From: an uncultured bacterium
Lineage (GTDB): Bacteria; Verrucomicrobiota; Kiritimatiellia; RFP12; UBA1067
NCBI GenBank assembly: GCA_902761035.1
Contig: CACWIW010000015.1
Coordinates: 1,586-65,585 of the forward strand
Direction of reading: 5' to 3'
DNA: 64,000 nt
Positions within the stretch are counted from its first letter, which is position 1. Each line of letters opens with the position of its first letter. This document shows positions 7,966-37,277 of the stretch, in pieces. The notes under the pieces were generated by a model, which saw only the letters and a list, made by a program, of their open reading frames with translations, searched no databases and was not told the DNA's origin. Position numbers and translations under genes: made by a program.

Positions 7966-7995
7966 TTGACTTATGCCAAAAAATTATGGTATAAT
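7966..7995 (+). promoter_or_regulatory. Near-consensus sigma70-like promoter (extended -10) of the glycan export/assembly operon
   Basis: TTGACT (7966-7971), an 18-nt spacer, then TGgTATAAT (7987-7995). ATG 8003 lies 7 nt after the -10 element and there is no Shine-Dalgarno sequence between them. Confidence 0.55.
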
Positions 7996-8002
7996 TACAG
8001 CG

Positions 8003-10217: not shown

Positions 10218-10284
10218 ATAGTTGCATCTACAATCCATCGGCAGCCTTAGAAATGAGGCTTCGCAAAGAATAAGGAGGAGATTT

Positions 10285-13200
10285 ATGTGTAAGGTGTCCA
10301 TCGTAGTTCCTGTCTATAATCGCGAGAGCGTGCTTCGGACGTGTCTTGAGTCGCTTGTCGGCCAGACTCTGAAGGAGATTGAGATTATATGCATTGACGA
10401 CGGATCGTCGGATGGATCGGGGGTCGTCCTTGACGAATTTGCCGCACGCGATTCGCGCATCCGTGTGATCAAAAAGGAGAACGGGGGCGCAGCCTCTGCG
10501 AAAAACGCGGGACTTGCCGCCGTGAGCGGCAAGTATGTGGTGTTTGTTGAACCAGATGACTGGTGCGACTTAGACATGATGAGGGGATTGTATGAGACTG
10601 CGGAGCGGACTGGGGCGGACGTGACCATCTGCGGGTTCAAGACATACGACGACCAGATCGGAAAGTTTGTTTCGGAGAAAACGTATCCGCACGACATTGC
10701 TGGACGGGAGCAGCCCTTTTCTGCAAAGAGCATTGCCGATAACGCATTCATCTGGTTTGGACAGGGGCTTGGGGACAAGTTTATCAACAGTGCCTATCTT
10801 TCGCAGTTGGGGGTGAAGTTCCTTGATCTCCCTCATGCGGAGGATTTGTGTGTTGTCGAAACGTGCATCGCCTGTGCGGACAAAATCTCCGTGGCGAATT
10901 TCCCGTACTACAACTACAGAATTCGGAGCAAAAGCTCGCAAAATCAGAATGACAAGTCACCGCTTGCGTTTTGCGAGGGATATGTGGAGCTTCGTCACCA
11001 GCTTGAGAAGCGCGGCTTATGGGATTTGTTTAGGTCAAGTTTCCGCCAGTCCGTCCTTGCTTCTATCGTATATGCTCTGAAGTCTCTTTCGGATGATAAA
11101 GCCCTTCGGCGCGTCTATCGCGAAGTTCGCGAGAAGTGGGTGTCTAGATTCGGGCTAAACCACCTGGAAAAATCAGAGTTGAAGGTTCCGGAGCATCTGT
11201 ATGATTCGCTTAATATCATCCGCGAAAACTCCGATCCTGTCAGGTTCATGTTGCACGCGCTACGTGTCGATGCCGAGTCGGCCAATAAGGTCGGTGCTGA
11301 ACTGCGGTCTGCGAAAGCCCAGGCTTTTGACATTGGAGACAGCGCTCCCCTCGTTTCTGTAATCATTGCCGTCAGGAACGGACAGGATACAATCGAGAAT
11401 TGCGTGCGGTCGGTTCTTGGACAGACGCTTCGCCAGATCGAAGTGATCTGCGTTGACGACGGGTCGACGGACGGGACTGTTTCGGCACTTAATTCACTAG
11501 CCATTGGCGATGTGCGCTTGCGAGTGATTCGGCAGGGGAAGCTTGGTGTCAGCGCTGCCCGGAATGCGGGGCTTGAGGCCGCTTGCGGAAAATATGTCGC
11601 CTTTCTGGATGCCGATGACGAGTACGTTGCGACCCATCTTTGGAATCTCGTTGCAAAGGCGGAAGCCGGGATGTGTGATGTCGTTCAGGCCGCACACTGC
11701 GAGGTCGTCGACGGGCAGGTGTCTCGCACTTCCCTGCCGCACGAGAAATGCACGGCGACCGACCTCCGGTCATGTCCGCAAATTGTTCGTTTTCAGACGA
11801 AGTACATCTGGGACAAGCTTTTCCGCCGTGAAATGCTAGAGCGAAACAACATCCGCTTTGCACCATACGGATATCACGAAGACCACCTGTTCCTTTTCGA
11901 CGTTGATCTTGTCGCCAGGAATTTTGCAACAGTGCCCGAGGTGGGATATCGTTATTCGAAGTCCAGCGTGGGTGCGGCAACGCGCTCTTACGATGAGCGG
12001 CTTCTTGACTGCCCCAAAGCGTATTGGGACATCTGCCGCAAGGCGCGTGAAGCCGGGCTGTTCGATGAACTTGCCGATTCTATTTGGGCCAACTGCTCCA
12101 TGAGTTATGCATGGCGGATATGGGCGTTCCCAAAATACGACAACCCCGATCTCAAGAGCAAAATCGTCAACGGGTGGTATGAGTTCTTCCAGGCGACTTT
12201 CCCGCACTGGCAGAAGGACATGCATCTCCTCGGCTACCCGGTCGCCCTTCCCCCGCATGATTACCGAAAGGTTTTGTTGCTTGGCGGCACGGGCGCACTT
12301 GGTGCGCACCTTGCGGAAATCCTCGCGGAGCAGGGTTGCCAAGTCTACGTGACGAGCCGCAGCGAGCATGACGATGTGCCGGGCATCTGCTATCTGAAGG
12401 GTGATGCACAGGACATAGGCTTCTTCCGTAAATTGACGCAGTCTAGATGGGATGCAATCGTTGATTTCATGGTTTATGGGCCAATCGCGTTCCAGCAACG
12501 CCTGACCAAGTTCCTGGAGATGACGGACCAGTACGTTTTTCTCAGTTCCTCCCGCGTATATGCCGACGCCCATGGTCAGTTGATAACGGAAAACTCGCCG
12601 CGGCTTCTGGACACGGTGACTGACGACGCCTATCTCAAGACGAGCGAATATGCGTTGGCGAAGGCGCGTGCAGAGAATGCGCTGAGGGCCAGCGGAAGTA
12701 CGAATTGGACAATTATACGCCCTTATGTGACGTTTAGCGAGCAGCGCCTTCAGTTGGGTACGCTCGAGAAGGAACACTGGCTAAAGAGAGTCCTTGAAGG
12801 CAAGCCCATCGTCTTTTCGGACGATGTAGCCGCCAGGACTACGACTTTGACGTATGGCCGCGATGTCGCGCGAGGGATGGCGTCGCTTATTGGACGAAAA
12901 GAAGCGCTTGGCGAGTGTTTCCATATCACGTCCTCCAAAAGTCTGGTCTGGAGGGACGTGCTTGAAATTTACGTCAGGGTCATCCGCGAGGTTACGGGGC
13001 GGGCCTGCCCTGTGGTAATGACGAGAAATTCCTGTCAGCTAAATACGCCGGGCAAATACCAAGTCTTGTATGACCGTCTCTTTGACCGCAGGTTTGACAA
13101 TACGAAGATCGGGAGGTTCATCGACGTATCCACGTTCCGTGATCCCGTCGAGGCATTGGAGAGCTGCCTGAGGGCGTTTTTGGCCGCTCCCAAGTTCCTC

Positions 13201-16200
13201 AAGGTCAATGAATTACTTGAATCTCTGCATGACAAGGCCTGTGGCGCACTGCCTACGGTTTCTGGAGGCTATACCGTTGAACGTAACGTGCAGATTCTCA
13301 TTGCGGCCTTGAAAGCACACGGCATAAGGCAGGTGATTGCATCTCCAGGCACTACGAACCTGACGTTTGTTGCCAGCATACAGCACGATTCATTTTTCAC
13401 CGTCAAGTCAGCTCCAGACGAACGTTCCGCGGCGTACATGGCCTGTGGCTGGGCTGCGGAGTCGGGGGCTCCGGTGGTCATCAGCTGCACTGGAGCCACT
13501 GCGAGCCGCAACTACCTGCCAGGCCTCACTGAGGCGTATTACCGCAAATTGCCGATCCTGGCCGTTACGGGGACGTTATACGAGCCAAGGGGCGGACATC
13601 TCACTCCGCAGTTTATTGTACGCACGCAGGCACCTACGGACACAGTCCGCCTTCAGGTGTCGATGCCGTTCGTGCGCGACAAGAACGACGAATGGGCAAA
13701 TACGGTTGCCGCCAATCATGCGATACTTGAGTTGGTACGGCATGGTGGCGGCCCTGTACACATCAATCTCGAAACGATGCACAGCCGTGACTATTCCGTG
13801 GCACGGCTTCCACCGGTTCGCGTAATTCACCGTCACTTCCCCGGTGAAGGGATGCCGCCGATTCCAGACGGTCGTGTTGCCGTGTTCATCGGCGCCCATG
13901 TGCCTTGGTCTGAGGCGCTGACCCTGGAGGTGGAGAAGTTCTCCGAGAAGTTCGACGCGCCGGTGTTTTGCGACCACGGCTCGAACTATCGCGGGAAAGG
14001 CGAGATGAACTTCACGCTTGCCTGCTACCAGCAGAGCGCGACATACAAGGAATACCTGCCTGACGTTCTCATCCACATCGGCGAAGTCTCGGCAGACTAT
14101 CCTTCGTTGAAAATCGTAGGAATGTCGAAAGTCTGGCGAGTGAGTGCCGATGGCGAGATCCGCGACCAGTTCCGCAGGCTTGTTGATGTGTTCGAGATGG
14201 ACGAACTGTCTTTTTTCCGGTTTTACAATAATGATTCGGAGAGTTCCCGCGCTTCTGGATATCGTACGGCTTGTGAACGAAAGCTCGCAAGCCTTCGCTC
14301 TCGGTTCCCGGATGTCCCGTTCTCGAACATCTGGGTAGCAAGTGTGTCGTCTCCCAAGGTTCCGGAAGGGGCATTCCTCCACCTAGGCATACTTAATTCA
14401 TTCAGGGCATGGAGCCTGTTCCAGTTGCCGAAGACGGTTCTAGCATCCTGCAATGCGGGCGGCTTCGGAATAGACGGTTGCCTTTCGACTTTGCTTGGCG
14501 CTTCATTCGCCCATCCCGACCGGATTCATTTTGCGGTGCTTGGAGACCTCGCTTTCTTCTACGATCTTAACTCGCTGGGGAATCGTCATGTAGGGGCCAA
14601 TCTGCGTATTCTGCTTATCAACAACGGCAAGGGAATGGAATTCCGTAATTTTAACCATCCTGCCTATCAATTCGGAAAGGCGGCCGACGAGTTTGTGGCA
14701 GCTGGCGGACACTACGGGAACAAGTCCCGTGAACTCGTGCGCCACTATGCGCAAGACTTGGGTTTTGACTATCTTTCCGCAGCTGACAAGCATGAATACA
14801 TGAAGGTGGCGGAGTCGTTCTGGTCGCCAGTGAAGCGGTCGAAGCCGCTCATACTCGAGGTTTTTACCGATGAGGAGTGCGAAAACGGGGCGCTTGAAAC
14901 TGTCACGTTGATGGAGGGAGCACCACCGCCCCCCAAACCCGTGGCGGCGCCTCCGCCCGCCAAACCCGCGTCGGCGCCTCCGCCCCCCAAAAAACCTGCG
15001 TCGGCGCCTCCGCCCACCAAGCCCGCGCCCCCAGCCCCTAAGGCCGCCCCCGCAAAGGCCCCCGCCGCGAAGGCGGTGCAGCCTATTAAGGTGGAGAGGG
15101 CAACTGTGGCGTCTCGGAAAATCGCCATCTTGACCTTCCACTGTGCCTACAATTGCGGTGCGTATCTGCAGGGATGGGCTCTTCAGACAATTCTTCGGCG
15201 CATTGGCTTCGAACCAGAGTTTCCGGATTGCACGCGCGTTGGTTATTTCCCGCGTTTCGGGGATGTCTGGTACAAGCAAAAGCCTAGCCCGGAGGCGGGC
15301 TGGTTCTCGCGTATGCTCTTCCGTCTTAAGACGGAGATTTGTGCCCTTGGACATGAGGATGTGAAACGGCATCGCTTTCGCATGTTTGCAAAGCATTGCC
15401 TCGCCATAAAGGTAATGAAACCTAAAGAAATCGAACGTCGATATCCGGCTGTAATAGTCGGCAGCGATCAAGTCTGGAACCCCGCCATAACGAGAAAAGA
15501 GACGGAATATTTCCGTACGACGATTTTCAAGAACCCGGCGCTGAAACGGTATTCCTACGCGATTAGCGTTGGCGATGCAATGCCAAAGAAGGAGAGCATC
15601 TCCTATTTGACGGCTGCGGCGAAGCTATTTGAGAACCTTTCGTTTAGAGAGAATCTATTGCCTCAGCTAGTGGATAAACATGGTCGTCATCCGACCGTTG
15701 ACCTAGATCCGACGTTGTTGCTGTCGAAGGCAGACTTCAACCGTATTGCCTATCCCAAGCGTTTGGAACGGAAGCCGTATCTTCTTGTCTATTCGCTCAT
15801 GTACAACGAGAAGACGTGGAACGCTGCGCGGACAGTGGCTAAACGGCTGGGGCTCAAGCCAGTGTTCATTCTGGTCTATCAGTACGGTCACAGTCAGATG
15901 GTCGATCCCGATGGTGTGCAAATCTCTGTTTCGCCTGATCGTTTTCTTGCTTACATTCGTGACGCCGAGGTGGTGATTACATCGTCTTTCCATGGCACGG
16001 CATTTTCCCTCATCTATCAGAAGAAGTTCGCTACCCTGCCATTTGTTCATGGGAAGGTGTCGCTTCGCTGTCAGAAGCTTCTCAAGTCGGTACACGAGGA
16101 GATTCACCAGATCGACAACCCTGATGATATTGAGGCGATTACCGCCGCGCTTACTTACACTCCGAGGCCTGAGACCATGCAGGCGCTTTCCAGGCTTTCG

Positions 16201-16410
16201 AACATGACGATTCGCAAACTGCGCGCGACGCTGCCTAATGTCGATGGTGTGCCGCGTTCACCAGCGCGTCCTGTCTATAGTACGCTCACTTGGCCGTTCC
16301 ATAAGATGTGGGGCGGGATAAAGTGTATCAAAGAGAACGGCGTTGGCTACACAGTCAAGCATGCCTGGGGTAAGGTCCTCCGGTTTGCAGGCGTCAGAAG
16401 CCCGCTTTAA
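10285..16410 (+). CDS. Five-domain glycan assembly enzyme (2,041 aa): GT2 - GT2 - extended SDR - MenD-like ThDP enzyme - Pro-rich linker - polysaccharide pyruvyl transferase
   Basis: ATG 10285 follows AAGGAGGAG (10272-10280). GT2 #1: VSIVVPVYN..QTLKEIEIICIDDGSSDGS. GT2 #2 from ~11350: VSVIIAVRN..QTLRQIEVICVDDGSTDGT. SDR from ~12262: LLLGGTGALGAHL and YALAK. ThDP domain at ~13270-14900: DERSAAYMACG and GDLAFFYDLNSLG..LLINNGKG. Pyruvyltransferase at ~15115-16130: AILTFHCAYNCGAYLQ and ITSSFHGTAFS. Confidence 0.9.
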   Translation: MCKVSIVVPVYNRESVLRTCLESLVGQTLKEIEIICIDDGSSDGSGVVLDEFAARDSRIRVIKKENGGAASAKNAGLAAVSGKYVVFVEPDDWCDLDMMRGLYETAERTGADVTICGFKTYDDQIGKFVSEKTYPHDIAGREQPFSAKSIADNAFIWFGQGLGDKFINSAYLSQLGVKFLDLPHAEDLCVVETCIACADKISVANFPYYNYRIRSKSSQNQNDKSPLAFCEGYVELRHQLEKRGLWDLFRSSFRQSVLASIVYALKSLSDDKALRRVYREVREKWVSRFGLNHLEKSELKVPEHLYDSLNIIRENSDPVRFMLHALRVDAESANKVGAELRSAKAQAFDIGDSAPLVSVIIAVRNGQDTIENCVRSVLGQTLRQIEVICVDDGSTDGTVSALNSLAIGDVRLRVIRQGKLGVSAARNAGLEAACGKYVAFLDADDEYVATHLWNLVAKAEAGMCDVVQAAHCEVVDGQVSRTSLPHEKCTATDLRSCPQIVRFQTKYIWDKLFRREMLERNNIRFAPYGYHEDHLFLFDVDLVARNFATVPEVGYRYSKSSVGAATRSYDERLLDCPKAYWDICRKAREAGLFDELADSIWANCSMSYAWRIWAFPKYDNPDLKSKIVNGWYEFFQATFPHWQKDMHLLGYPVALPPHDYRKVLLLGGTGALGAHLAEILAEQGCQVYVTSRSEHDDVPGICYLKGDAQDIGFFRKLTQSRWDAIVDFMVYGPIAFQQRLTKFLEMTDQYVFLSSSRVYADAHGQLITENSPRLLDTVTDDAYLKTSEYALAKARAENALRASGSTNWTIIRPYVTFSEQRLQLGTLEKEHWLKRVLEGKPIVFSDDVAARTTTLTYGRDVARGMASLIGRKEALGECFHITSSKSLVWRDVLEIYVRVIREVTGRACPVVMTRNSCQLNTPGKYQVLYDRLFDRRFDNTKIGRFIDVSTFRDPVEALESCLRAFLAAPKFLKVNELLESLHDKACGALPTVSGGYTVERNVQILIAALKAHGIRQVIASPGTTNLTFVASIQHDSFFTVKSAPDERSAAYMACGWAAESGAPVVISCTGATASRNYLPGLTEAYYRKLPILAVTGTLYEPRGGHLTPQFIVRTQAPTDTVRLQVSMPFVRDKNDEWANTVAANHAILELVRHGGGPVHINLETMHSRDYSVARLPPVRVIHRHFPGEGMPPIPDGRVAVFIGAHVPWSEALTLEVEKFSEKFDAPVFCDHGSNYRGKGEMNFTLACYQQSATYKEYLPDVLIHIGEVSADYPSLKIVGMSKVWRVSADGEIRDQFRRLVDVFEMDELSFFRFYNNDSESSRASGYRTACERKLASLRSRFPDVPFSNIWVASVSSPKVPEGAFLHLGILNSFRAWSLFQLPKTVLASCNAGGFGIDGCLSTLLGASFAHPDRIHFAVLGDLAFFYDLNSLGNRHVGANLRILLINNGKGMEFRNFNHPAYQFGKAADEFVAAGGHYGNKSRELVRHYAQDLGFDYLSAADKHEYMKVAESFWSPVKRSKPLILEVFTDEECENGALETVTLMEGAPPPPKPVAAPPPAKPASAPPPPKKPASAPPPTKPAPPAPKAAPAKAPAAKAVQPIKVERATVASRKIAILTFHCAYNCGAYLQGWALQTILRRIGFEPEFPDCTRVGYFPRFGDVWYKQKPSPEAGWFSRMLFRLKTEICALGHEDVKRHRFRMFAKHCLAIKVMKPKEIERRYPAVIVGSDQVWNPAITRKETEYFRTTIFKNPALKRYSYAISVGDAMPKKESISYLTAAAKLFENLSFRENLLPQLVDKHGRHPTVDLDPTLLLSKADFNRIAYPKRLERKPYLLVYSLMYNEKTWNAARTVAKRLGLKPVFILVYQYGHSQMVDPDGVQISVSPDRFLAYIRDAEVVITSSFHGTAFSLIYQKKFATLPFVHGKVSLRCQKLLKSVHEEIHQIDNPDDIEAITAALTYTPRPETMQALSRLSNMTIRKLRATLPNVDGVPRSPARPVYSTLTWPFHKMWGGIKCIKENGVGYTVKHAWGKVLRFAGVRSPL
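14920..15075 (+). repeat. Pro/Ala/Lys-rich interdomain linker encoded by three imperfect 27-30-nt tandem units
   Basis: The protein reads APPPPKPVAAPPPAKPASAPPPPKKPASAPPPTKPAPPAPKAAPAKAPAAKA. The unit GCGCCTCCGCCC..AA.CC.GCG recurs three times. The linker contains a C6A6 tract at 14983-14994. Confidence 0.8.
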
Positions 16411-16420
16411 TCAGCGGCCC

Positions 16421-17725
16421 ATGAAATTGTCGGTCATAATTCCGGCCTTTAATGCCGCCCAGTGGATAAAGGACGCCGTTGATTCGGTGTTGGTGCAGGA
16501 TTTTAGGGATTTTGAGCTTATTGTCGTTGATGACGGGTCTACGGATGAAACTTTAGCCATAATTGATCGGATTGCCGCATCGGATGGCAGGGTGTCCGTC
16601 ATCCATCAACGGAATGCGGGGCCCGGCGTTGCACGGAACGCAGGGCTCGACCATGCCAGTGGTGAATATGTGGCATTCGTTGATTCGGACGATAAGTTGG
16701 CATCGCCAAACGCGCTGTCGTCAATGATGCAAAGGGCTGTCGAGACCGGATGTGATGTGCTGCTGGCGCGCGCGCGCAAGATCGGTCTTCGAGGTGAGCT
16801 TGGAAATGAACTTGACTGGTGCCTGAGGAAAAACCTTATTCCAGCGCGGGATGTGTTCTCACCCGAAGAAGTCGGGGTCTCGTTGTTTTTTGTCGCCGGC
16901 CCGGTGCCTTGGGGAAAGCTCTATCGCCGCGAGTTCGTTAACGGCGAAAAGCTGCGATTCCCGCCATTGCCAAGATCCGAAGATTTCCCATTTGTTCAGA
17001 CGGCGATGGCATGTGCGGGGAAGATTGCGGTTTATGATGACATTGTGATTTTGCATAGAGTGGCGCGTGTCGATTCCCTTGAAAGCACGAAGGATGCGAC
17101 CCCCTTGATTTTTGCGGAAGCCGAAAGCATCTTTGCAAAAATGCTTGGCGAACGGGGGCTTTGGGAAAAATTCGCTTTGGCTGCAAAGGCGCGTGCCATG
17201 CTGAGGTTGGCTTATAACCTGACGGCGGTTCAATCCTTCGACGGTATCCGGAAGGTGTTCGCATTCGCGTATGAGGAACGAAAGAATTTGTGCATTGATG
17301 ATGTTGCCGACTCCTTCCGTGACTATGCTTTGGCGAAGAGGAATGTAGACGGTATTCTCGCACATGAATCTGCGGAAGCGTGGATGTACGCAAGAATGGT
17401 GGCTGCGGAAAAGAACTTACGGGCGAAGGTTGTGGAACTACGGAGGTACGACAGGGATCATAAGGCGCTGGCGGCGTTGAAGGCTGCTCAGGACGCATCA
17501 CTGGTTCAATCGCAGCGGGAGGTGTCGCGGCTCAAGCAAAAGGTCATGTCGCTGGAAGAGAAGTCGTTGGCGCTTGAATGTTCCGAGGCGTACCGCGTCG
17601 GAATGGCCGTCACATGGCCGGCGCGGAGGGCGTGGGGCGGCGTGAAGTGCCTGCGCGAGAACGGCTTGAAGTACACCATAGAACACGCCATTGGAAAGGT
17701 GTTTAGCAGACGCGGCAGGCAATGA
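16421..17725 (+). CDS. GT2 glycosyltransferase with C-terminal coiled coil and conserved tail
   Basis: ATG 16421 lies 10 nt after the upstream stop (the ORF opens at 16343). The GT2 head reads MKLSVIIPAFN...DFELIVVDDGSTDET. A C-terminal heptad-rich segment (~17390-17570) is followed by SEAYRVGMAVTWPARRAWGGVKCLRENGLKYTIEHAIGKV. Confidence 0.9.
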   Translation: MKLSVIIPAFNAAQWIKDAVDSVLVQDFRDFELIVVDDGSTDETLAIIDRIAASDGRVSVIHQRNAGPGVARNAGLDHASGEYVAFVDSDDKLASPNALSSMMQRAVETGCDVLLARARKIGLRGELGNELDWCLRKNLIPARDVFSPEEVGVSLFFVAGPVPWGKLYRREFVNGEKLRFPPLPRSEDFPFVQTAMACAGKIAVYDDIVILHRVARVDSLESTKDATPLIFAEAESIFAKMLGERGLWEKFALAAKARAMLRLAYNLTAVQSFDGIRKVFAFAYEERKNLCIDDVADSFRDYALAKRNVDGILAHESAEAWMYARMVAAEKNLRAKVVELRRYDRDHKALAALKAAQDASLVQSQREVSRLKQKVMSLEEKSLALECSEAYRVGMAVTWPARRAWGGVKCLRENGLKYTIEHAIGKVFSRRGRQ

Positions 17726-17766
17726 GTTGCCCGTGTAAAACCCATAAAAAGGACAGGAGAGACGCT

Positions 17767-20700
17767 ATGCCCAAAATATCATTTGTCGTTCCCGTATGCA
17801 ACACCGCGCAGTTTCTGTCCGCGACGCTCGACAGCATCCTCGCGCAGACGTACAGAAACATCGAAGTCATCTGTTCCAACGACTGTTCGACAGACTCGTC
17901 ATCGCAGATGCTCGACGAGTATGCAAAGAAAGACTCCCGCGTCAAAGTAGTGACGGCCGAGAAAAACGGCGGGGTTTCGTGCGCGCGAAATCAGGGGTTG
18001 GAACATGTGACCGGCGAATACGTTTGGTTCTTTGATTCGGACAACCTCCTTCATCCCCAGGCGGCGGAGATCATGCTCCGCGCCTGTGAGGGCAACAAAG
18101 CCGATTTCGCCTATACGCCGGTCGAGCGCGTCCAAGAGGAGGCTGCGCTTGCCGATTGCGTCAAGCCTGTTGCCTGCACGGTGGAATGCATGGCCAGCCC
18201 GACCGATCCCTACAGATTGTACGGCAACGACTATGGGATGCAGCACATATTGGCGAAGGCGGAGCTTGTAAGGGATAACAGATTCGAGCGGGGGGTGACT
18301 TATGGCGAGGATGTCCTTTTTGTGTATCGATTCCTCATCAAGAACCCCAAAGGCGTGTATATCCACGAACCGCTTGTTTACTACCGCCAGAGGGAGTCTT
18401 TGGCCGTTCAAGGCCAGGGAGGTGTGCGCATACAAAGAAGTGTAGACCGCGTGGTAGAATGCCTCAAACCGCTTCTGATGCTTGACATGCCATCCGAGAC
18501 AAGGACGGTTTTGACACGATGGCTTAAAGCCAATAACGCTGGTAGCCTGCCGCAGCTGGAAAGCGAAAGCTCTTGCTACGCCGTCATGGCATCTGACGAT
18601 ATCCGGGCGAAATCGACATCCGGCGGCGTGTTCACCGTCTTGGCGGAGGATGTCATCGCGCACGGCGGTTGCGTGGCCGGCGCGGTCTATGCGAACGACT
18701 GGTCGGTTAAACACGAATTGGTCGAAACCGTTGAGGGCATAGCGGCCATGCGTGGCTCCAAATATGTTCGCGGCGTCATAGACAAGAACTTTCTTGCCCG
18801 TCTTGACGAGGCGGTCGCATTGGGGAGAACCGTGCTTTTCACCGGACTGCCGTGCCAGGTCGCCGCGATGCGTAAGCGTTACGGCAATCGACAGAACGTC
18901 ATTTTTCTGGATATCATCTGCCACGGCGCGCCGGATGCCAGGTTGTGGCGGAAGCGTGTGGAGGAGCTTTCGTCGGGAAGTAGGAGAATAACCGGCATCA
19001 ACTTCAGGGACAAGCGCAACGGATGGGGTGGATTGACGAGTACGTTCGCCGTGAACTATGACGACGGCTCCGAGTATGCAGTAGATCTTTACAAAGACCC
19101 TTACGGTGTGGCGTTCGGAATCGATCTGCTTCTTCCCGAAGAATGCACCCGCTGTCCGTTCTCTTGCGAAAAACGCGTAGGTGACATTACGATTGGCGAC
19201 TTCTGGGACTTGGCAAATAGTTCACTTAATGATCGCAAGGGCCTTTCATGCGTGGTCGTGAACACGCTAAGAGGCTTGGAATTGTTTGAGCGCGTCCGCA
19301 ATCGCTTTTGTCAAGCCCTGCCGTACCCTGTATCTTATGTTAAACAACCGAATTTCCACATGCCATCGCGACCGCATCCGTTCAGCAGGGAATTCCAGAA
19401 AGATGTCCTTGCTGGGATGCCGTTTGACGCGGCGGTAGCGAAGTACGCAGAGCACCCAAAAAGCGTCGCCGTGCTGAATTTCCATTGGGAACAGACGAAT
19501 TTCGGGGCGATACTCACGTCTTTTGCACTTTCACGGCATCTCACGGATATCGGGTGGCAGCCACAGAACATCGATTACTCCCCGCTGGATTCCGACCTCG
19601 CCGCCATGCGCGAAAATGTTGGTTTCGAGTCGTTCAGATACCGTCATCTGCCGCGGACGCGGAAAATTACGGACGGCAGATCGTTGTGGAATTATACGAA
19701 GAGGTTTAAGACGTTTATCGTCGGCAGCGATCAGGTCTGGTCTAAGAAATTGACCGAAGGCAAGGAAGATGCCTTCTACCTCTCTTTCGTCGGGCCTGGT
19801 AGGAGGCTGATTGCGGCTGCGGCGAGTTTTGGGATGGTACCGGCTGCCGAACGGGACGAGGAAGCTCTGACGGCGCGGCTCAGGGTCTTCAGTGCCATCA
19901 GCGTGCGGGAAATGCAAGACGCACAAACAGTCAGGAATCTTGTGGGTAAAGGCGAGTGCGTCCCGGATCCAGTATTTTGGGTCGATCGGTCGGTCTGGGA
20001 CGAGCTTGCCGACAAGGCGAAGCGCAAAACCGTTGGAAAGGTCGTCGTCTATAGCGTAAACATGTCGGAGACTGCGGGGATTCTGAAGTTTCTTGAGATG
20101 AGCGGCCTTACGACCCCGAAAAAGCCTGCAAGGATGCTTTCCAGTTCCATGAGCCCCGAGGAATGGCTCTCGGCCATCCGTGCAGCGAAGCTTGTTGTGA
20201 CCGATTCATTTCATGGCGCATGTTTCTCGGTTTTGTTCCACACGCCTTTCATCTGCATCCAAGCGGATGAAAACCGCTCTGCACGGCACCGCACGATGTT
20301 GGAGGGACTTGGCCTTTCGGGGCATCTTTTCAAAGATGGCGAGAGTGCCTTTCAGGCTTACAGCGTCGGGATGAACGTCGACTGGGCCAAGGTGGACGAT
20401 GGGATTGCGCAGTATCGCAGCAAGGGGCGGGATTTCATAGAGTCCGCCCTCGCGACAGATGACATGGCGTCCCCGGAAATGGCGGCAGCTTGGACGCAGC
20501 TTGAAGATTACCGCAAGGAGCACCCCTGTTTGTGGACTAGAGGCCAATCTGCAATGCGGTCTGCCATGATGGCAGACGCTAAGATTTGGGCGCAGCGATG
20601 TCGGTTCAAGGAGGAGCGCGACGCACTGCGCGTGCGGGTCGAGGAACAGAAGGCTAAAGAGGCTGCGCTGTGGGCGGAACGCAGCAAGTTCTTGGAGGAG

Positions 20701-22377
20701 CGCGACGCGCTGCGCGGGCGGGTCGAGGAACAGAAGGCGAAGGAGACCGCGCTGTGGGCGGAGCGCTGCAAGTTCTTGGAGGAACGCGACGCGCTGCGCG
20801 GGCGGGTCGAGGAACAGAAGGCAAAGGAGACCGCGCTGTGGGCGGAACGCAGCAAGTTCTTGGAGGAGCGCGACGCATTGCGCGAGCGGGTAGAGGAACA
20901 GAAGGCGAAGGAGACCGCTCTGTGGGCGGAACGCTGCAAGTTCTTGGAGGAGCGCGACGCATTGCGCGAGCGGGTAGAGGAACAGAAGGCGAAAGAGACC
21001 GCGCTGTGGGCTGAGCGCTGCAAGTTCTTGGAAGAGCGCGACGCACTGCGCGGGCGGGTCGAGGAGCAGAAGGCGAAAGAGACCGCGCTGTGGGCGGAGC
21101 GCTGCAAGTTCTTGGAAGAGCGCGACGCGCTGCGCGGGCGGGTCGAGGAACAGAAGGCGAAGGAGACCGTGCTGTGGGCGGAACGCTGCAAGTTCTTGGA
21201 GGAACGCGACGCACTGCGCGGACGGATCGAGGAGCAGAAGGCGAAAGAGGCTGCGCTGTGGGCGGAGCGCAGCAAGTTCTTGGAGGAGCGTGACGCGCTG
21301 CGCGGGCGGGTCGAGGAACAGAAGGCAAAGGAGACCGCTCTGTGGGCGGAACGCTGCAAGTTCTTGAAGGAACGCGACGCACTTCGCGGGCGGGTCGAGG
21401 AACAGAAGGCGAAGGAGACCGCTCTGTGGGCGGAACGCTGCAAGTTCTTGGAGGAACGCGACGCACTTCGTGGGCGGGCCGAGGAGCAGAAGGCGAAGGA
21501 GGCTGCACTGTGGGCGGAACGGTGCAAGTTCTTGGAGGAGCGTGACGCATTGCGCGGGCGGGTCGAGGAACAGAAGGCAAAGGAGACTTCGCTGTGGGCG
21601 GAACGCTGCAAGTTCTTGGAGGAGCGTGACGCATTGCGCGGGCGGGTTGAGGAGCAGAAGGCGAAGGAGGCCGCACTGTGGGCGGAACGGTGCAAGTTCT
21701 TGGAGGAGCGTGACGCATTGCGCGGTCGGGTCGAGGAGCAGAAGGCGAAGGAGGCCTCGCTGTGGGCGGAACGCTGCAAGTTCATGGAGGAACGTGACGC
21801 ATTGCGTGGACGGGTCGAGGAACAGAAGGCGAAGGAGACCGCGCTATGGGCGGAACGGTGCAAGTTCTTGGAGGAGCGTGACGCGCTGAGCGGTAGGGTC
21901 GAGGAGCAGAGGGCGAAGGAGGCCGCGCTGTGGGCTGAGCGCGGAAAAATCATGGCCCAGCGCGATGCGCTGCGCGAACGGAATGAGGCGCAGAAGGCGA
22001 AAGAGGCAAAACTGTGGGCTGAACGCGGCAAATTCAAGGACGAGCGCGATGCGCTACTCGAACGGATTGAGGTACAGAAGGTTAAGGAGTCCAAGCTCTG
22101 GGCTGATCGCTGCAAGTTCCTGGGTGAGCGCAACGAACTTCGAATGGTGGTTGCCGAGAAGGATGCGTCACTGGCTGCGGATGCCGGCTGGATAGCGGAA
22201 CTTTGCGACGCGCTTATGGTCGCCGAAAAAGAGGTGTCGGCCCTCCGGGAGTCCGCTTCCTATAAGTTGGGGCGTGCGCTCACCAAGCCGTTCCGTGCCA
22301 TCCGTGATAGGTTCAACCAAAAAACGGCAATTAGAAATGATATAAGCCACAAAGAACAGGATAAAACAGGAGAATGA
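17767..22377 (+). CDS. Multidomain enzyme: GT2 - FrhB-like (coenzyme F420 hydrogenase beta-type Fe-S/flavin) - polysaccharide pyruvyl transferase - 19 x 28-aa helical repeat stalk - conserved tail
   Basis: ATG 17767 (MPKISFVVPVCN) follows AGGAGA; ATG 17722, which overlaps the upstream stop, is an alternative start. GT2: QTYRNIEVICSNDCSTDSS. FrhB-like at ~18570-19330: STSGGVFTVLAE, LPCQVAAMRK, CTRCPFSC. Pyruvyltransferase at ~19460-20320: VAVLNFHWEQTNFGAIL and VTDSFHGACFS. Repeats occupy 20578-22173. The tail reads SASYKLGRALTKPFRAIRDRF. Confidence 0.9.
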   Translation: MPKISFVVPVCNTAQFLSATLDSILAQTYRNIEVICSNDCSTDSSSQMLDEYAKKDSRVKVVTAEKNGGVSCARNQGLEHVTGEYVWFFDSDNLLHPQAAEIMLRACEGNKADFAYTPVERVQEEAALADCVKPVACTVECMASPTDPYRLYGNDYGMQHILAKAELVRDNRFERGVTYGEDVLFVYRFLIKNPKGVYIHEPLVYYRQRESLAVQGQGGVRIQRSVDRVVECLKPLLMLDMPSETRTVLTRWLKANNAGSLPQLESESSCYAVMASDDIRAKSTSGGVFTVLAEDVIAHGGCVAGAVYANDWSVKHELVETVEGIAAMRGSKYVRGVIDKNFLARLDEAVALGRTVLFTGLPCQVAAMRKRYGNRQNVIFLDIICHGAPDARLWRKRVEELSSGSRRITGINFRDKRNGWGGLTSTFAVNYDDGSEYAVDLYKDPYGVAFGIDLLLPEECTRCPFSCEKRVGDITIGDFWDLANSSLNDRKGLSCVVVNTLRGLELFERVRNRFCQALPYPVSYVKQPNFHMPSRPHPFSREFQKDVLAGMPFDAAVAKYAEHPKSVAVLNFHWEQTNFGAILTSFALSRHLTDIGWQPQNIDYSPLDSDLAAMRENVGFESFRYRHLPRTRKITDGRSLWNYTKRFKTFIVGSDQVWSKKLTEGKEDAFYLSFVGPGRRLIAAAASFGMVPAAERDEEALTARLRVFSAISVREMQDAQTVRNLVGKGECVPDPVFWVDRSVWDELADKAKRKTVGKVVVYSVNMSETAGILKFLEMSGLTTPKKPARMLSSSMSPEEWLSAIRAAKLVVTDSFHGACFSVLFHTPFICIQADENRSARHRTMLEGLGLSGHLFKDGESAFQAYSVGMNVDWAKVDDGIAQYRSKGRDFIESALATDDMASPEMAAAWTQLEDYRKEHPCLWTRGQSAMRSAMMADAKIWAQRCRFKEERDALRVRVEEQKAKEAALWAERSKFLEERDALRGRVEEQKAKETALWAERCKFLEERDALRGRVEEQKAKETALWAERSKFLEERDALRERVEEQKAKETALWAERCKFLEERDALRERVEEQKAKETALWAERCKFLEERDALRGRVEEQKAKETALWAERCKFLEERDALRGRVEEQKAKETVLWAERCKFLEERDALRGRIEEQKAKEAALWAERSKFLEERDALRGRVEEQKAKETALWAERCKFLKERDALRGRVEEQKAKETALWAERCKFLEERDALRGRAEEQKAKEAALWAERCKFLEERDALRGRVEEQKAKETSLWAERCKFLEERDALRGRVEEQKAKEAALWAERCKFLEERDALRGRVEEQKAKEASLWAERCKFMEERDALRGRVEEQKAKETALWAERCKFLEERDALSGRVEEQRAKEAALWAERGKIMAQRDALRERNEAQKAKEAKLWAERGKFKDERDALLERIEVQKVKESKLWADRCKFLGERNELRMVVAEKDASLAADAGWIAELCDALMVAEKEVSALRESASYKLGRALTKPFRAIRDRFNQKTAIRNDISHKEQDKTGE
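20578..22173 (+). repeat. In-frame tandem repeat, 19 x 84 bp (28 aa), inside the CDS at 17767-22377
   Basis: The unit is x-x-LWAER(C/S)KFLEERDALRGRVEEQKAKE. Unit k starts at 20578+84(k-1) and there are no indels across all 19 copies. Copy 1 and copies 17-19 are degenerate; the central copies differ at only a few positions. Confidence 0.95.
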
Positions 22378-22510: not shown

Positions 22511-22639
22511 GTGAAAAAAGTAATTAAACTTTGTGCAGTGAAGGCGTTAGCCATTGGCATCGCTTTCGTGCTCGCGCTCTTGTCCGAGGCGGCGACGCAG
22601 AAGGTCGGCGACGATACTGGGTGTTGCGGTGTAGCGTAG
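22511..22639 (+). CDS. Candidate 42-codon small ORF with signal-peptide-like N-terminus (MKKVIKLCAVKALAIGIAFVLALLSEAATQKVGDDTGCCGVA)
   Basis: GTG 22511 lies 8 nt after GAGG. The stop TAG (22637-22639) is embedded in the TAGGAGGGG ribosome-binding site of the next gene. The ORF lies downstream of the candidate promoter. I recognise no homology, so it is a low-confidence call. Confidence 0.3.
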   Translation: MKKVIKLCAVKALAIGIAFVLALLSEAATQKVGDDTGCCGVA

Positions 22640-22650
22640 GAGGGGCATTT

Positions 22651-24072
22651 ATGCCAAGAGTTTCAATTATAATACCTGTATATAATGTAGAAAAGTATCT
22701 TCGGCAGTGCCTTGAGTCAGTCCTCAACCAGACGCTGCGCGACATTGAGATAATATGTGTGGACGACGGTTCGACCGACGCCAGCGCGGCGATACTTAGG
22801 GAATATGCGGACAAAGACAGCCGCGTGAAGGAGCTGTTCCACGAACACACGAATGCTGGGGCGGCGCGCAACGCCGGTATGGCAGTTGCAACGGGGGAGT
22901 ATCTGGGTTTTGTCGATTCTGACGACTGGTGCGATTCGACGCTCTTCGAAAAGGCGTATGCCAAGGCCAAAGCCGATGATGCAGATGTGGTTTCGTGGCG
23001 ATTTCATCAATATGATGAACGGACGAAGAAGACGGGTACTCCGCGTGTTTTCCCTCCGTCTGTGGTGAAATCTGAAACGCCGTTTACTGCAGAGGTGCTG
23101 GGGGATGGCATTTTTGTGCCCATTACATACGCGCCGTGGGGAAGAATTGTGCGGCGTACATTCGTCATGGCGGAAGACCTTCGGTTTCAGGAGATTGTGC
23201 GGACGAACGATGTCTACTTTTGCTGCCTGGTTCGGGCTCTTGCGCCACGGCAGACGATTGTTGACGAAGTCCTTTACACCTACCGCGTAGGGACGGGGAC
23301 GAATTTGCAGGCCAACAACGCGGCGTCTCCTGCATCGGCTTTTGAAGCGTGGAAGGCTGTTGCTGAAGCGCTTGGACGGCGCGGATTGCGCGATCACATG
23401 AGAAAGGCGTTGATTTCAGCATCGGCGAATTCGTTTTTCTATACGTTGAACACGATGTCGGCAGCGTCATCATGGTGCGATTTTCATGAGCGATTGCGAA
23501 AGTTGTATGGCATGGATGCCTTTTATTCCTCAATAAATGTGGATGAAATCGATAATCCGCAGACGGCAGCCTATTTCCGCATTCTGAAGGAGACCGACGC
23601 GCCGTTGGAGTTTCTGGTTCGCCAAGAGAACTATTATCGGGAACGTTTGGCGATGGAATACTGGACGCGCATAGGTTCGCAGAAATTCAATCGCGAGTTG
23701 CAGGAATGTGAAGTTCGGATGCGTAAAGAACTTGCGGAGCAGACTATGCGTATCGACGCGCTTGGGGACGAAAAGGCGCGATTAGCTGCAGATGTCGAGT
23801 GTTTGAAAGATGAGAAGACCAAATCAGAAGCCGTTATCGGGCGACTGATGGCAGAGAAGGAGCTTATAGAAAACGCAAGAGACGAATTGCAAAAGGATAA
23901 CGTAGAGCTTTCGAAAAGAGTCGCCGAGCAGATCGAAATCAACGCTGCACTGCAGAACCGGATTGCGCAAGAGCGCATTGACAAGGAGACGTTGAAACGT
24001 TCTCTGTCATATCGCATTGGCCGCGCTGTAACATGGTTGCCAAGGTATATCTTGGGCAGCTTTCGAAGATAA
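22651..24072 (+). CDS. GT2 glycosyltransferase with ~125-aa C-terminal coiled coil and conserved tail
   Basis: ATG 22651 follows TAGGAGGGG (the ORF opens at 22531). The GT2 head reads MPRVSIIIPVYNVEKYLRQCLESVLNQTLRDIEIICVDDGSTDAS. The coiled coil spans ~23690-23990. The tail reads SLSYRIGRAVTWLPRYILGSFRR. Confidence 0.9.
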   Translation: MPRVSIIIPVYNVEKYLRQCLESVLNQTLRDIEIICVDDGSTDASAAILREYADKDSRVKELFHEHTNAGAARNAGMAVATGEYLGFVDSDDWCDSTLFEKAYAKAKADDADVVSWRFHQYDERTKKTGTPRVFPPSVVKSETPFTAEVLGDGIFVPITYAPWGRIVRRTFVMAEDLRFQEIVRTNDVYFCCLVRALAPRQTIVDEVLYTYRVGTGTNLQANNAASPASAFEAWKAVAEALGRRGLRDHMRKALISASANSFFYTLNTMSAASSWCDFHERLRKLYGMDAFYSSINVDEIDNPQTAAYFRILKETDAPLEFLVRQENYYRERLAMEYWTRIGSQKFNRELQECEVRMRKELAEQTMRIDALGDEKARLAADVECLKDEKTKSEAVIGRLMAEKELIENARDELQKDNVELSKRVAEQIEINAALQNRIAQERIDKETLKRSLSYRIGRAVTWLPRYILGSFRR

Positions 24073-24123
24073 AATTGTTGAATGATGTGGAAGAATGAGT
24101 CTAAATTGCCTGAGGAGAAGCCA

Positions 24124-27449: not shown

Positions 27450-27462
27450 AAACAGGATTATT

Positions 27463-30507: not shown

Positions 30508-30532
30508 TGTCGCCAGTAAAATATGGTATACT
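30504..30532 (+). promoter_or_regulatory. Sigma70-like promoter candidate with extended -10 (leaderless geometry)
   Basis: TTGATG (30504-30509), a 17-nt spacer, then TGgTATACT (30524-30532). ATG 30539 lies 6 nt after the -10 element, with no Shine-Dalgarno sequence. Confidence 0.45.
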
Positions 30533-30538
30533 ACCGAC

Positions 30539-33014: not shown

Positions 33015-33015
33015 A

Positions 33016-35078: not shown

Positions 35079-35112
35079 ATAATGTTTTAAAACACATTCC
35101 TGAAAGAAGATT

Positions 35113-36246: not shown

Positions 36247-36256
36247 AGCAGTATCG

Positions 36257-37261: not shown

Positions 37262-37277
37262 GTGTGAATGTTAAATG

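Follow-up and report, generated by a model that had tools for sequence, protein, structure and literature searches.

What is a helical stalk of more than five hundred residues, encoded by tandem DNA repeats, doing on an enzyme of glycan synthesis? A coiled-coil ruler is the accepted account of how chain length is set in ABC-transporter-dependent O-antigen synthesis, an account whose experimental basis is a handful of enterobacterial proteins in which insertions and deletions were engineered. In the window, the stretch of 64,000 nucleotides analysed here, such a spacer has seemingly been built by nature from exchangeable 28-residue units, the number of which varies between otherwise identical genomes. 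An earlier sequence-only reading of the locus had proposed that the stalk is an expandable ruler for glycan chain length.

The stalk gene forms one string of plus-strand genes with wzm and wzt (Table 1), and the synteny is kept in L001, L036, L037, L038, L040 and L041. The sequence-only reading had placed at this locus an exporter whose Wzt carries a C-terminal glycan-binding module, and Pfam confirmed it: Wzt_C scored 67.4 bits (cut-off 30.4) over aa 339-468 of a 500-aa ORF. The nucleotide-binding domain of this protein is similar to the Aquifex Wzt structures 8dku and 7k2t (about 1e-48). Wzt_C is present in the window, L001 and L036. Sister loci with 1-12 units carry a short Wzt without Wzt_C; the stalk is therefore independent of that transporter type.

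Table 1. Features of the locus, in positions of the window.
Feature	Position	Strand	Basis or content
Wzm, ABC-2 permease of the glycan exporter	7973..8770	+	PF01061 ABC2_membrane, E 4e-10; position same in L001 and L036
Wzt, ATPase with C-terminal carbohydrate-binding module	8763..10217	+	PF00005 and PF14524 Wzt_C
2062-aa multi-enzyme: GT2, GT2, epimerase, TPP_enzyme_N, pyruvyltransferase; stalkless	10222..16410	+	Pfam
GT2 with short (~60 aa) helical C-terminal segment and shared tail	16343..17725	+	Pfam GT2
Catalytic head of the stalk protein	17722..20577	+	GT2 17779-18138, FrhB-like 18577-19302, pyruvyltransferase 19498-20262
Helical stalk, 19 x 84-bp/28-aa units, 532 residues	20578..22173	+	Repeat analysis, conservation, periodicity, AF2
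Non-repeat helical linker, last unit to tail	22174..22251	+	AF2: continuous with stalk helix; aligns with orthologues
Conserved C-terminal tail SASYKLGRALTKPFRAIRDRF... then stop codon	22252..22377	+	Predicted cationic amphipathic membrane-surface helix
GT2 with non-repetitive helical C-terminal segment (~110-125 aa) and shared tail	22531..24072	+	Pfam GT2

The stalk gene is the plus-strand ORF 17722-22377, with the array in frame; its product has 1551 aa, or 1536 aa (gene callers choose 17767 as the start). The protein consists, in order, of GT2, FrhB-like and pyruvyltransferase domains, stalk and tail. This architecture, first read from the letters, was recovered by Pfam, with GT2 at aa 20-139 (115.6 bits), FrhB_N/C at aa 286-527 (29.8 and 65.0 bits) and PS_pyruv_trans (PF04230, polysaccharide pyruvyltransferase) at aa 593-847 (83.3 bits, cut-off 25.3), all above curated cut-offs. 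The heads of orthologues are 72-99% identical. A PDB sequence search with the head returned relatives for the GT2 part only, which were generic GT2 structures, and in NCBIfam no model exceeded its curated cut-off with the stalk protein, either of the tailed GT2s or two membrane proteins.

The array lies inside this one ORF. Phasing from 20578 gave 19 in-frame units of 84 nt, or 28 aa, without indels, and Tandem Repeats Finder reported an array at 20610-22139 (period 84, 18.2 copies, 87% matches, 0% indels, score 2066); the perfect phasing claimed earlier thus stands. Units 2-16 share 75-81 of 84 nt and 25-28 of 28 aa with the consensus. For unit 1 the figure is 67 nt, and for units 17, 18 and 19 it is 63, 62 and 55 nt, while the 84-nt blocks flanking the array score 19-24 of 84, the chance level. 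To call the central copies near-identical in DNA was an overstatement, as the mean pairwise identity of the core units is 0.892 (range 0.83-0.96). Among these units pS is 0.36 and pN 0.036, a pN/pS of 0.10: the repeats are old at synonymous sites and have been kept as protein by purifying selection. We rejected a minus-strand ORF of 541 aa (20508-22133) as a gene: it arises as a by-product of the repetition, and the plus frame has this ratio and runs on unbroken from conserved domains. We also rejected the unit Cys as a disulphide or metal site. Every unit had been said to bear Cys or Ser at one position; position 8 is Cys in 14, Ser in three and Gly in two of the window's 19 units, and is Gly in the sister clade.

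Other positions hardly vary. Across clades, W4, A5, R7, E13, R14 and L17 are fixed or almost fixed (98-100%), as seen in 144 units of 16 alleles. Such constancy, for all of these residues but A5, together with the low pN/pS, exceeds what a spacer needs and would suit units that each bind a partner, be it a protein, the growing glycan or a lipid carrier, so that capacity rather than length would scale with the number of copies. We regard this as very improbable. There is no known candidate for such a partner, specific inter-helix packing with polar core layers would explain the conserved residues equally well, and the 28-aa unit matched only eight of 1.84 billion representative proteins, which leaves a binding role without independent support.

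The stalk is predicted to be helical, and it has heptad periodicity. It contains no Pro in 532 residues, AF2 predicts units 15-19 to form one helix (pLDDT 91-98), and the Fourier power of its hydrophobicity, absent at 3.6 residues, peaks at exactly 3.5 and 7.0. A crude scan for strict a/d coiled coils in all proteins of the locus picked out segments of two neighbouring GT2s alone and missed the stalk, because its a positions are mostly Arg/Glu (a = R/R/V/E, d = L/F/L/Q). The core is therefore non-canonical, and Fourier periodicity was used in place of the scan. A PDB sequence search with the stalk found no relatives. The AF2 model of a full-length one-unit orthologue (P0003, eight-sequence alignment) had a mean pLDDT of 52, too poor for a fold search.

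The sequence-only reading had offered a coiled coil or an ER/K-type single helix. Helicity and heptads were borne out; the ER/K alternative was not, since the stalk has a conserved hydrophobic seam (L/I3, W4, F10, L17 and V21, in a strict 3.5-residue period), a 25% content of hydrophobic residues and few opposite-charge pairs at i/i+4 (0.10 per residue). A related possibility is that the stalk, as a single alpha-helix or a weakly associated one, is a flexible tether for a head that modifies chains rather than terminating them: pyruvyl or lactyl side groups would be added far along the polymer, and a longer stalk would give a larger working radius. This would agree with the 50% of charged residues, the 0.30 opposite-charge pairs per residue at i/i+3 and i/i+4 combined, the Arg/Glu-rich a positions and the second pyruvyltransferase domain of the locus, which sits in the stalkless giant enzyme. 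Pyruvyltransferases, moreover, usually act on internal repeat units (49 candidates, mostly capsular, PMC10629545). The seam and the hydrophobic content are, however, atypical of ER/K helices, and indels in heptad multiples (see below) suggest that register matters, as it would not for a lone helix. We consider a tether improbable. Most likely the stalk is a rigid helix in a parallel coiled coil, an oligomeric state that we infer, with ~560-580 residues in total and a length of ~80-85 nm.

Does the length of this helix vary in nature? Orthologues were compared for differing repeat counts, as the sequence-only reading had suggested, and such differences were found, even between near-identical strains. 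Loci 98.9-100% identical, forming one 90%-identity cluster, have 19, 16 and 13 units; sister lineages have 0-12. Natural alleles with 4-19 units exist, and four orthologues have none or one (P0003, P0004, P0009 and P0010). Between L001 and L036, stretches of 13,311 and 10,798 nt match without a mismatch, and the sole difference is an indel of 252 nt, or three units. In three allele pairs the heads are identical and the unit counts differ, each time by 252 nt. Mapped unit by unit, the window and L001 are separated by at least two whole-unit events, one hybrid unit included. Within clades, lengths differ in steps of 7 residues or multiples of 7 without exception (35-aa units and a 14-aa indel are among the cases), and the same holds for indels in the linker among orthologues. 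All 16 alleles examined are in frame with an intact tail. Scans for more alleles returned only one close relative in JGI metagenomes, identical to P0130, and one species representative in GTDB genomes (L003, 71%).

All of these copy numbers come from short-read metagenome assemblies, and the 252-nt difference common to three allele pairs could hint at a systematic bias. The differences might then be artefacts of assembly and the true array be of one fixed length, an explanation that we regard as extremely improbable. The longest exact repeat in the arrays is 59-67 nt, shorter than the final k of 141 (the L036 contig bears the label k141_316621). The L036 junction is a hybrid unit that combines SNPs of two separate L001 units; the reads must contain its k-mers, so it cannot stem from k-mer collapse. 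The 19-unit allele is identical in two contigs from different assemblies, and the signatures of units by position are kept between alleles. Copy-number polymorphism is established at the level of assembled sequence.

Recombination and slippage had both been put forward as the source of copy-number change. Recombination is favoured, and slippage is unlikely, because the units are only ~89% identical. Slipped-strand phase variation was rejected on this ground and because the changes are always in frame; as all variants are in frame, the term phase-variable does not apply in its ON/OFF sense. The array also falls outside the simple-sequence-repeat ON/OFF contingency loci, its unit of 84 nt being a multiple of three.

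Beyond the linker, the protein ends in a tail with a hydrophobic moment of up to 0.70 and a net charge of +5 at aa 1510-1533, which AF2 models as a helix with a kink at Pro, followed by a second helix. The tail motif is kept in all stalked orthologues. It is conserved, amphipathic and basic, in keeping with the membrane-proximal tail envisaged earlier, and a C-terminal amphipathic membrane-associated helix, one of the traits of the ruler class (which may have a polymerase recruitment site in its place), is thereby predicted. Profile searches with the last unit, linker and tail, and with the WGGxKC tail, in a set of 5.8 billion proteins returned only short unannotated fragments. Three neighbouring enzymes share the tail, so that four enzymes of the locus end alike: it closes the 2062-aa multi-enzyme (...YSTLTWPFHKMWGGIKCIKENGVGYTVKH), the GT2 just upstream of the stalk gene (...SEAYRVGMAVTWPARRAWGGVKCLRENGLKYTIEH) and the GT2 downstream (...SLSYRIGRAVTWLPRYILGSFRR), in which the crude heptad scan flagged aa 388-442. 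The stalks of these neighbours measure ~0, 60 and 120 residues.

The 28-aa unit is likewise not confined to one enzyme. It occurs on GT8-GT2 heads, which are polymerase-like, and on GT2-only heads, and P0151, an orthologue of the downstream GT2, bears three copies. It is thus a general stalk module, not one specific to terminators. Between P0002 and P0148 the head is swapped, with leader, stalk and tail unchanged. These observations raise the possibility that the stalk is a mere scaffold or oligomerisation module that, with the shared tail, assembles glycosyltransferases into one membrane-bound complex; its length would measure nothing and copy-number differences would be near-neutral. A unit and tail on heads as different as GT2-only, GT8-GT2 and GT2-FrhB-pyruvyltransferase, a tail common to four enzymes, orthologues that work with 0-1 units and sister loci lacking Wzt_C are all as expected of a scaffold. 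A neutral, unstable array should shrink, however, yet 13-19 units persist with a pN/pS of 0.10 per unit. Dimerisation or complex formation needs no 530 residues, and the much shorter, non-repetitive stalks of the neighbours leave a length gap within the locus that looks functional. We judge a mere scaffold unlikely.

We give an even chance to the reading in which a WbdD-like, though non-homologous, stalk keeps a capping head at a distance from the membrane and has its length reset by recombination. The stalk gene would act in wzm/wzt (ABC-transporter-dependent) glycan assembly of a PVC-group bacterium, probably one of the Kiritimatiellae. The stalk would join a cytoplasmic head to the C-terminal cationic amphipathic helix, lying on the inner face of the cytoplasmic membrane, and by analogy with WbdD its length would keep the chain-capping head away from the polymerising enzymes near the membrane. 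Undecaprenyl-linked chains would be capped only once they can reach the head, perhaps with a terminal sugar and a pyruvyl or lactyl group, and in the lineage of the window the capped chain would then be recognised by Wzt_C and exported. Whole units of ~4.2 nm each would be gained or lost through unequal homologous recombination between 84-bp units, and these changes, being always in frame and in heptad phase, would create heritable stepwise alleles of stalk length. Here we infer how the protein is oriented at the membrane, that its head caps chains, and any influence of the stalk on glycan length. For a cap made by a terminal pyruvyltransferase there is a precedent in WbbZ, which by terminal pyruvylation caps and shortens O-polysaccharide in vitro (PMC10629545).

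A wider version of this reading strikes us as possible, if on balance doubtful. In it, strains of one lineage would carry, as natural alleles, glycan rulers of different lengths: recombination among the repeats of a coiled coil of up to ~80 nm would change the length of an exported surface polysaccharide in steps of ~4 nm (often three units, ~12.5 nm). The tailed enzymes would form a vertical assembly line on one shared anchor, with swappable heads at heights of ~0, 60, 120 and 560 residues.

Several observations argue against the WbdD-like reading. Polymerase-like GT8-GT2 heads carry the unit, so that the presence of a stalk is no proof of a terminator; some orthologues make do with 0-1 units; Wzt_C is missing from the Wzt of those sister loci whose stalks have 1-12 units; and the heptad core is non-canonical. 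The terminal pyruvyltransferase of K. pneumoniae O1 does not set chain length (PMC11231755). In classical spacer coiled coils length is conserved and sequence drifts (PMC5082667), whereas this stalk does the reverse, with its sequence kept and its length varying.

If stalk length does track glycan length, the locus would offer a ruler test that is independent and phylogenetically distant, with a ready allelic series of 4-19 units. It would also supply a mechanism by which the surface glycans of gut or rumen bacteria change length heritably and in steps, with a bearing on phage, complement and host interactions, and its modular build of head, stalk units and shared anchor could serve glycoengineering as a means of programming how long a polysaccharide becomes. 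Should length prove irrelevant, the conserved unit and shared tail would still be an undescribed assembly module for glycosyltransferase complexes.

Strain-variable tandem repeats encode length or reach in the type III secretion needle ruler YscP, phage tape-measure proteins and streptococcal M proteins. These measure protein assemblies or are surface antigens, and none is known to measure a glycan from the cytoplasmic side. In the literature we found nothing relevant on tandem-repeat variation of WbdD-type rulers, on FrhB-pyruvyltransferase fusions or on O-antigens of Kiritimatiellae.

The pyruvyltransferases WbbZ and WbmX (K. pneumoniae O1b and O2c) are of the same PS_pyruv_trans type as the domain found here and cap the non-reducing end of an ABC-exported O-polysaccharide (PMC10629545). 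The stalk enzyme differs from them in its fused GT2 and FrhB-like domains and its long stalk, and WbbZ is not reported in the cited papers as part of a coiled-coil ruler protein. In WbbB (K. pneumoniae O12), ORF6-O7 and ORF7-O4, as is proposed here, a coiled coil parts a terminating module from polymerising glycosyltransferases in an ABC-dependent pathway, with catalytic modules variously spread over single- and multi-module proteins (PMC11231755). WbbB and ORF6-O7 carry their polymerase glycosyltransferases at the C-terminal end of the same polypeptide, whereas the stalk protein ends in a short tail only, and the putative polymerases are separate proteins with that tail.

An extended coiled coil on the terminator protein is a characteristic marker of this assembly strategy (PMC11231755), and the closest likeness is to WbdD (E. 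coli O9a; K. pneumoniae O3 and O5). In both proteins an N-terminal catalytic head is followed by an extended helical stretch, a coiled coil in WbdD and most likely in ours, and then by a C-terminal amphipathic helix, membrane-associated in WbdD and predicted to be so in ours; each is encoded at a wzm/wzt locus, with a carbohydrate-binding module on the Wzt protein (PMC11231755, PMC5082667). The likeness is one of build, as Pfam and PDB searches gave no sequence homology of the stalk protein to WbdD or WbbB: the GT99 domain of WbbB and the methyltransferase-kinase domains of WbdD are absent from it by Pfam, and the stalk went unmatched in PDB sequence searches. The head of WbdD is a methyltransferase/kinase, that of the stalk protein GT2, FrhB-like and pyruvyltransferase. 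The ruler function of WbdD was shown by engineered insertions and deletions, whereas the stalk protein is known from sequence and model. Its stalk, at ~80 nm, is about four times longer than the ~20-nm coiled coil of WbdD and, unlike it, is built of tandem 28-aa units, has a non-canonical core and is polymorphic in length between strains.

Tandem Repeats Finder reported a single array at 20610-22139 (period 84, 18.2 copies, 87% matches, 0 indels, score 2066), which resolves into 19 units when phased from 20578 and lies in frame within the 1551-aa ORF of the stalk protein (1536 aa from the gene-caller start at 17767). This confirms the 19 in-frame, indel-free 84-bp repeats of the sequence-only reading. 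Agreement with the core consensus ACCGCGCTGTGGGCGGAACGCTGCAAG... (TALWAERCKFLEERDALRGRVEEQKAKE) is 75-81 of 84 nt, or 25-28 of 28 residues, in units 2-16. The first copy and the last three had been called degenerate and are so, with unit 1 matching at 67 and units 17, 18 and 19 at 63, 62 and 55 of 84 nt; in the 84-nt blocks flanking the array the match is at chance level. The central copies, described as nearly identical in DNA, are less alike than that, with a mean pairwise identity of 0.892 (0.83-0.96). For these core units pS was 0.36 and pN 0.036 (pN/pS = 0.10); judged by their silent sites the units are old, and their protein sequence is strongly conserved. Across 16 alleles (144 units), conservation reaches 100% at R7 and R14, 99% at W4, A5 and L17, 98% at E13 and 89% at F10 (numbering within the unit). 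A Cys, sometimes Ser, had been assigned to position 8 of every unit; the window has 14 Cys, three Ser and two Gly there and the sister clade has Gly, and Cys is not a defining feature of the unit. A 541-aa minus-strand ORF over the array was rejected as a gene, being a by-product of the repeat. The segment 20001-22000 has a GC content of 0.62, a GC skew of 0.26 and an AT skew of 0.18, against a GC content of ~0.52-0.55 alongside, a composition that the purine-rich GAG/CGC/AAG codons of the unit would produce.

Features of the glycan locus, the stalk protein and related loci. Positions are nucleotides of the window or of the locus named; aa, residues of the stalk protein
Feature	Position	Strand	Remarks
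Surface proteins	1482-4442; 4447-7866; 52961-55738		Predicted
Wzm	7973-8770	+	
Wzt with Wzt_C module	8763-10217	+	Pfam, 67.4 bits
Giant enzyme, 2062 aa	10222-16410	+	Pfam: GT2, GT2, epimerase, TPP_enzyme_N, pyruvyltransferase; tail motif
GT2	16343-17725	+	Pfam; tail motif
Stalk protein	17722-22377	+	
GT2 of stalk protein	aa 20-139		Pfam, above curated cut-off
FrhB_FdhB_N/C of stalk protein	aa 286-527		Pfam, above curated cut-offs
PS_pyruv_trans of stalk protein	aa 593-847		Pfam, above curated cut-off
Repeats of stalk protein	aa 953-1484		Then 26-residue non-repeat helix
Tail SASYKLGRALTKPFRAIRDRF... of stalk protein	After non-repeat helix, up to stop codon		
GT2	22531-24072	+	Pfam; tail motif
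GT2 plus Glyphos_transf	24082-27030	+	Pfam
PMT_2-like GT-C membrane protein	27415-28992	+	Pfam
433-aa ORF (no assignment), further glycosyltransferases, aminotransferases, ATP-grasp enzyme	29206-41091	+	Pfam
Small ORF	~30536-30922		
GT2, 314 aa	30928-31872		
Wzt without Wzt_C, sister loci	L037 6778-7785; L038 969-1934; L040 5133-5894; L041 9240-10001		
P0002	L040 5894-9793		GT2-FrhB-pyruvyltransferase-stalk-tail
P0148	L041 10001-12139		GT2-stalk-tail
Tail-motif carrier	L038 8751-10253	+	
Tail-motif carrier	L038 11384-12871	-	

The proposed head of GT2, FrhB-like and pyruvyltransferase domains was recovered with Pfam. By analogy with MurA/MurB, the FrhB-like domain could, speculatively, reduce an enolpyruvyl ether to a lactyl ether. 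The 532-residue repeat region contains no proline, is 49.6% charged and 24.8% hydrophobic, and its hydrophobicity gives Fourier peaks at exactly 3.5 and 7.0 residues, with none at 3.6. AlphaFold2, run as a single-sequence monomer, folded units 15-19 plus the tail as one unbroken helix (residues 2-175, pLDDT 91-98), followed by a kink at the tail proline and a second helix of lower confidence. Together with the periodicity, this model upholds the helical stalk as a prediction. The heptads have an unusual core, in which strong hydrophobicity is confined to one position (L3, F10 and L17, with Q24 as the fourth) and its partner is R7, R14, V21 and E28; the seam is flanked by W4 and L11. For this reason the stalk was not flagged by a strict a/d coiled-coil scan. 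The class of ER/K single alpha-helices was rejected on composition, hydrophobic periodicity and unit conservation, the pattern of conserved residues (R7, R14, W4, A5, L17, E13, F10) being atypical of that class.

If the helix is continuous, arithmetic at 0.148-0.15 nm per residue gives the repeats a span of ~79-80 nm, or ~4.2 nm per unit, which is a calculated and not a measured length. Dimeric or trimeric coiled coils have persistence lengths of the order of 100 nm or more and ER/K single helices nearer 15-20 nm, so that only the coiled-coil form could reliably measure 80 nm. Residues 1510-1533 of the tail reach a helical hydrophobic moment of 0.70 with a net charge of +5, values that predict a helix binding the membrane in its plane.

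Between 7973 and about 41091 every gene is on the + strand and spacing is tight, and the transporter type put forward earlier, Wzm plus a Wzt with a C-terminal module, is borne out by the Wzt_C match. The stalk-protein tail is also found on three neighbours and is therefore a C-terminal module common to four enzymes of one operon. The GT2 just upstream ends in a helical segment of ~60 aa followed by SEAYRVGMAVTWPARRAWGGVKCLRENGLKYTIEH, the GT2 just downstream in ~110-125 aa of non-repetitive helix and then SLSYRIGRAVTWLPRYILGSFRR, and the stalkless giant enzyme in YSTLTWPFHKMWGGIKCIKENGVGYTVKH (a WGGxKCxKENGxxYTxKH tail). The helix preceding the tail thus measures ~0, 60, 120 and 560 residues in the four enzymes. 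The motif S-x-[SAE]-Y-[RK]-x-G-x3-T-x-P-x-R, in many cases with WGG[VI]KC[LI][RK]ENGxxYT after it, ends several different glycosyltransferases here and in locus L038. It has no model in Pfam or NCBIfam, and tail profile searches of protein sets returned fragments only.

The epimerase of the giant enzyme is of the NAD-dependent epimerase/dehydratase type, and its pyruvyltransferase is the second polysaccharide pyruvyltransferase of the locus. A TPP-dependent module is unusual within a glycan-assembly protein; sugar modification of a branched or acyloin type may be its purpose. The PMT_2-like protein, the small ORF (81% nt identity to an EamA-family gene of L001, a related contig) and the 314-aa GT2 are grouped together, resembling the three-component systems described for periplasmic glycan decoration (PMC11127046). 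The large predicted surface proteins on either side of the locus combine Peptidase_C10 (streptopain-like) with an Inhibitor_I69 prodomain, BspA-type LRR_5 arrays and Listeria-Bacteroides Flg_new repeats. Among species-representative genomes the closest is L003 (71% aa identity), and sister locus L037 adjoins heptose/core-LPS genes (Glyco_transf_9, HldE-like, GmhA-like, Bac_transf). The host is most likely a diderm PVC bacterium and the product plausibly an O-antigen-like glycan.

Close orthologues of the three-domain head are 72-99% identical and differ widely in total length. Counted as occurrences of a W[AS][EQD]R anchor, units number 19 in the window, 16 in P0001, 13 in P0122, 12 in P0126, 11 in P0005 and P0125, 10 in P0006, P0008 and P0130, nine in P0002, seven in P0007, P0127 and P0131, five in P0132, four in P0128 and one in P0003. 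P0004 has none and carries a different 14-aa repeat instead; P0009 and P0010 (45-51% relatives) have none. The comparison of orthologues proposed earlier thus revealed counts from 0 to 19, including 19, 16 and 13 at near-identical loci. P0123 (911 aa, 4.6-kb contig, same 90%-identity cluster) has an unrelated 40-aa C-terminus after ~aa 870 and no stalk; truncation of the allele, an insertion or chimeric assembly could account for it.

The 12.8 kb upstream are 98.9% identical between L001 (16 units) and the window (139 mismatches), and their arrays differ by at least two whole-unit events: L001 has one additional unit, similar to window units 10 and 11, and has lost units 12-15 of the window, the junction being marked by a unit that is part 15 and part 16. 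L001 and L036 (13 units), from different samples, are separated by a clean 252-nt indel flanked by 13,311 nt on the left and 10,798 nt on the right without a mismatch. Its junction falls in a 2-nt window bounded by two unit-specific SNPs; the hybrid unit of L036 must be present in reads, because collapse of the longer allele in a de Bruijn assembler cannot produce it. The arrays contain no exact repeat longer than 59-67 nt, and the 19-unit allele has an identical copy in a second contig from a different assembly. Three allele pairs with 100% identical heads (L001/L036, L042/L037 and P0127/P0128; 16 versus 13, 10 versus 7 and 7 versus 4 units) each differ by exactly three units (252 nt), indicating that the array changes faster than point substitutions accumulate. 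A 252-nt super-period was detected by TRF in L003; the window array shows no evident one.

A number of units extend to 35 aa (28 + 7), and a 14-aa indel is present in one allele. Within each clade, the spacing between a conserved HPC motif and the tail does not vary modulo 7, so that every length change keeps the heptad register. The suggested phase variability was not upheld: with all variants in frame and a mean unit identity of 0.892, the array does not qualify as an ON/OFF phase-variable locus. The unit consensus is clade-specific (C8/L11 versus G8/K11) and, in close strains, orthologous units are more alike than paralogous units within one strain; homogenization therefore operates only on longer timescales. 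We are highly confident of a helical stalk with a membrane tail and of a real copy-number polymorphism.

A two-unit query run against the complete set of 1.84 billion representative proteins gave only eight matches, and the unit is therefore rare. P0148 (712 aa) has a different, GT2-only head, but its N-terminal leader (35 aa) is almost the same as that of P0002 (1299 aa), and the two proteins share nine units and the tail; both lie at the equivalent position in related contigs, directly after wzm-wzt, and represent a head swap on a constant stalk. P0151, the orthologue of the GT2 just downstream of the stalk gene, has three units, and the GT8-GT2 enzymes P0150 and P0152 have 4-6 related units. 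This range of heads indicates a general stalk module for the glycosyltransferases of these loci, not one tied to a single catalytic activity. Homology between the window and L001 stops ~620 bp past the stalk gene (window ~22998, L001 ~14980); beyond it the window continues with a GT2 of 513 aa and a GT2/Glyphos_transf protein of 982 aa, and L001 with a single triple-GT2 protein of 1571 aa. Since homology to the 98-99% identical L001 ends there, the glycan locus is a mosaic in which recombination has left a breakpoint close behind the stalk gene.

Several observations count against a stalk that sets glycan chain length. The unit occurs on polymerase-like GT8-GT2 heads, some relatives have 0 or 1 unit, and in sister loci, where stalk proteins have 1-12 units (1-9 in the four loci tabulated), Wzt (253-335 aa) is without Wzt_C. 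The stalk could instead serve purely as a scaffold, tether a chain-modifying head flexibly, or act as a multivalent binding platform. The chances that the stalk acts as a ruler seem evenly balanced, and a ruler is still the most likely mechanism, given the WbdD order of parts, the wzm/wzt locus with Wzt_C and the pyruvyltransferase head. As a ruler, the tail would keep the protein at the membrane beside the short-stalk glycosyltransferases, the stalk would position the putative capping head ~80 nm away, and recombination between units would alter that distance stepwise. A literature search, with the main bioinformatic terminator survey outside its scope, found no tandem-repeat-built or naturally length-polymorphic ruler of the WbdD class. 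Specialists would find no surprise in a coiled coil on such an enzyme; its extreme length, modular repeat build and strain-level allelic series are likely surprises, as are the head swap and an anchor common to enzymes with graded stalk lengths.

In ABC-transporter-dependent O-polysaccharide systems, an extended coiled coil is characteristic of terminators and serves as a molecular ruler; in WbdD, catalytic sites at the N-terminus are followed by a coiled coil and, at the C-terminus, by an amphipathic membrane helix with a site that recruits the polymerase, engineered coiled-coil insertions or deletions shift modal chain length, and the carbohydrate-binding module of Wzt restricts export to capped chains (PMC11231755, PMC5082667, PMC10629545). 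In classical spacer coiled coils it is length, not sequence, that is conserved (PMC5082667); here the reverse holds, with unit sequence conserved and length variable, which argues against a ruler. The pyruvyltransferase domain recalls WbbZ, which adds a terminal pyruvate cap and makes the polymer shorter in vitro (PMC10629545); in Klebsiella pneumoniae O1, chain length is not set by the terminal pyruvyltransferase (PMC11231755), a further argument against. PDB sequence searches found no similarity to WbdD or WbbB. The stalk protein has no catalytic domain in common with WbdD, but it has the same order of parts in a wzm/wzt locus with Wzt_C, and by analogy it most likely works like a WbdD-class ruler without being a WbdD homologue.
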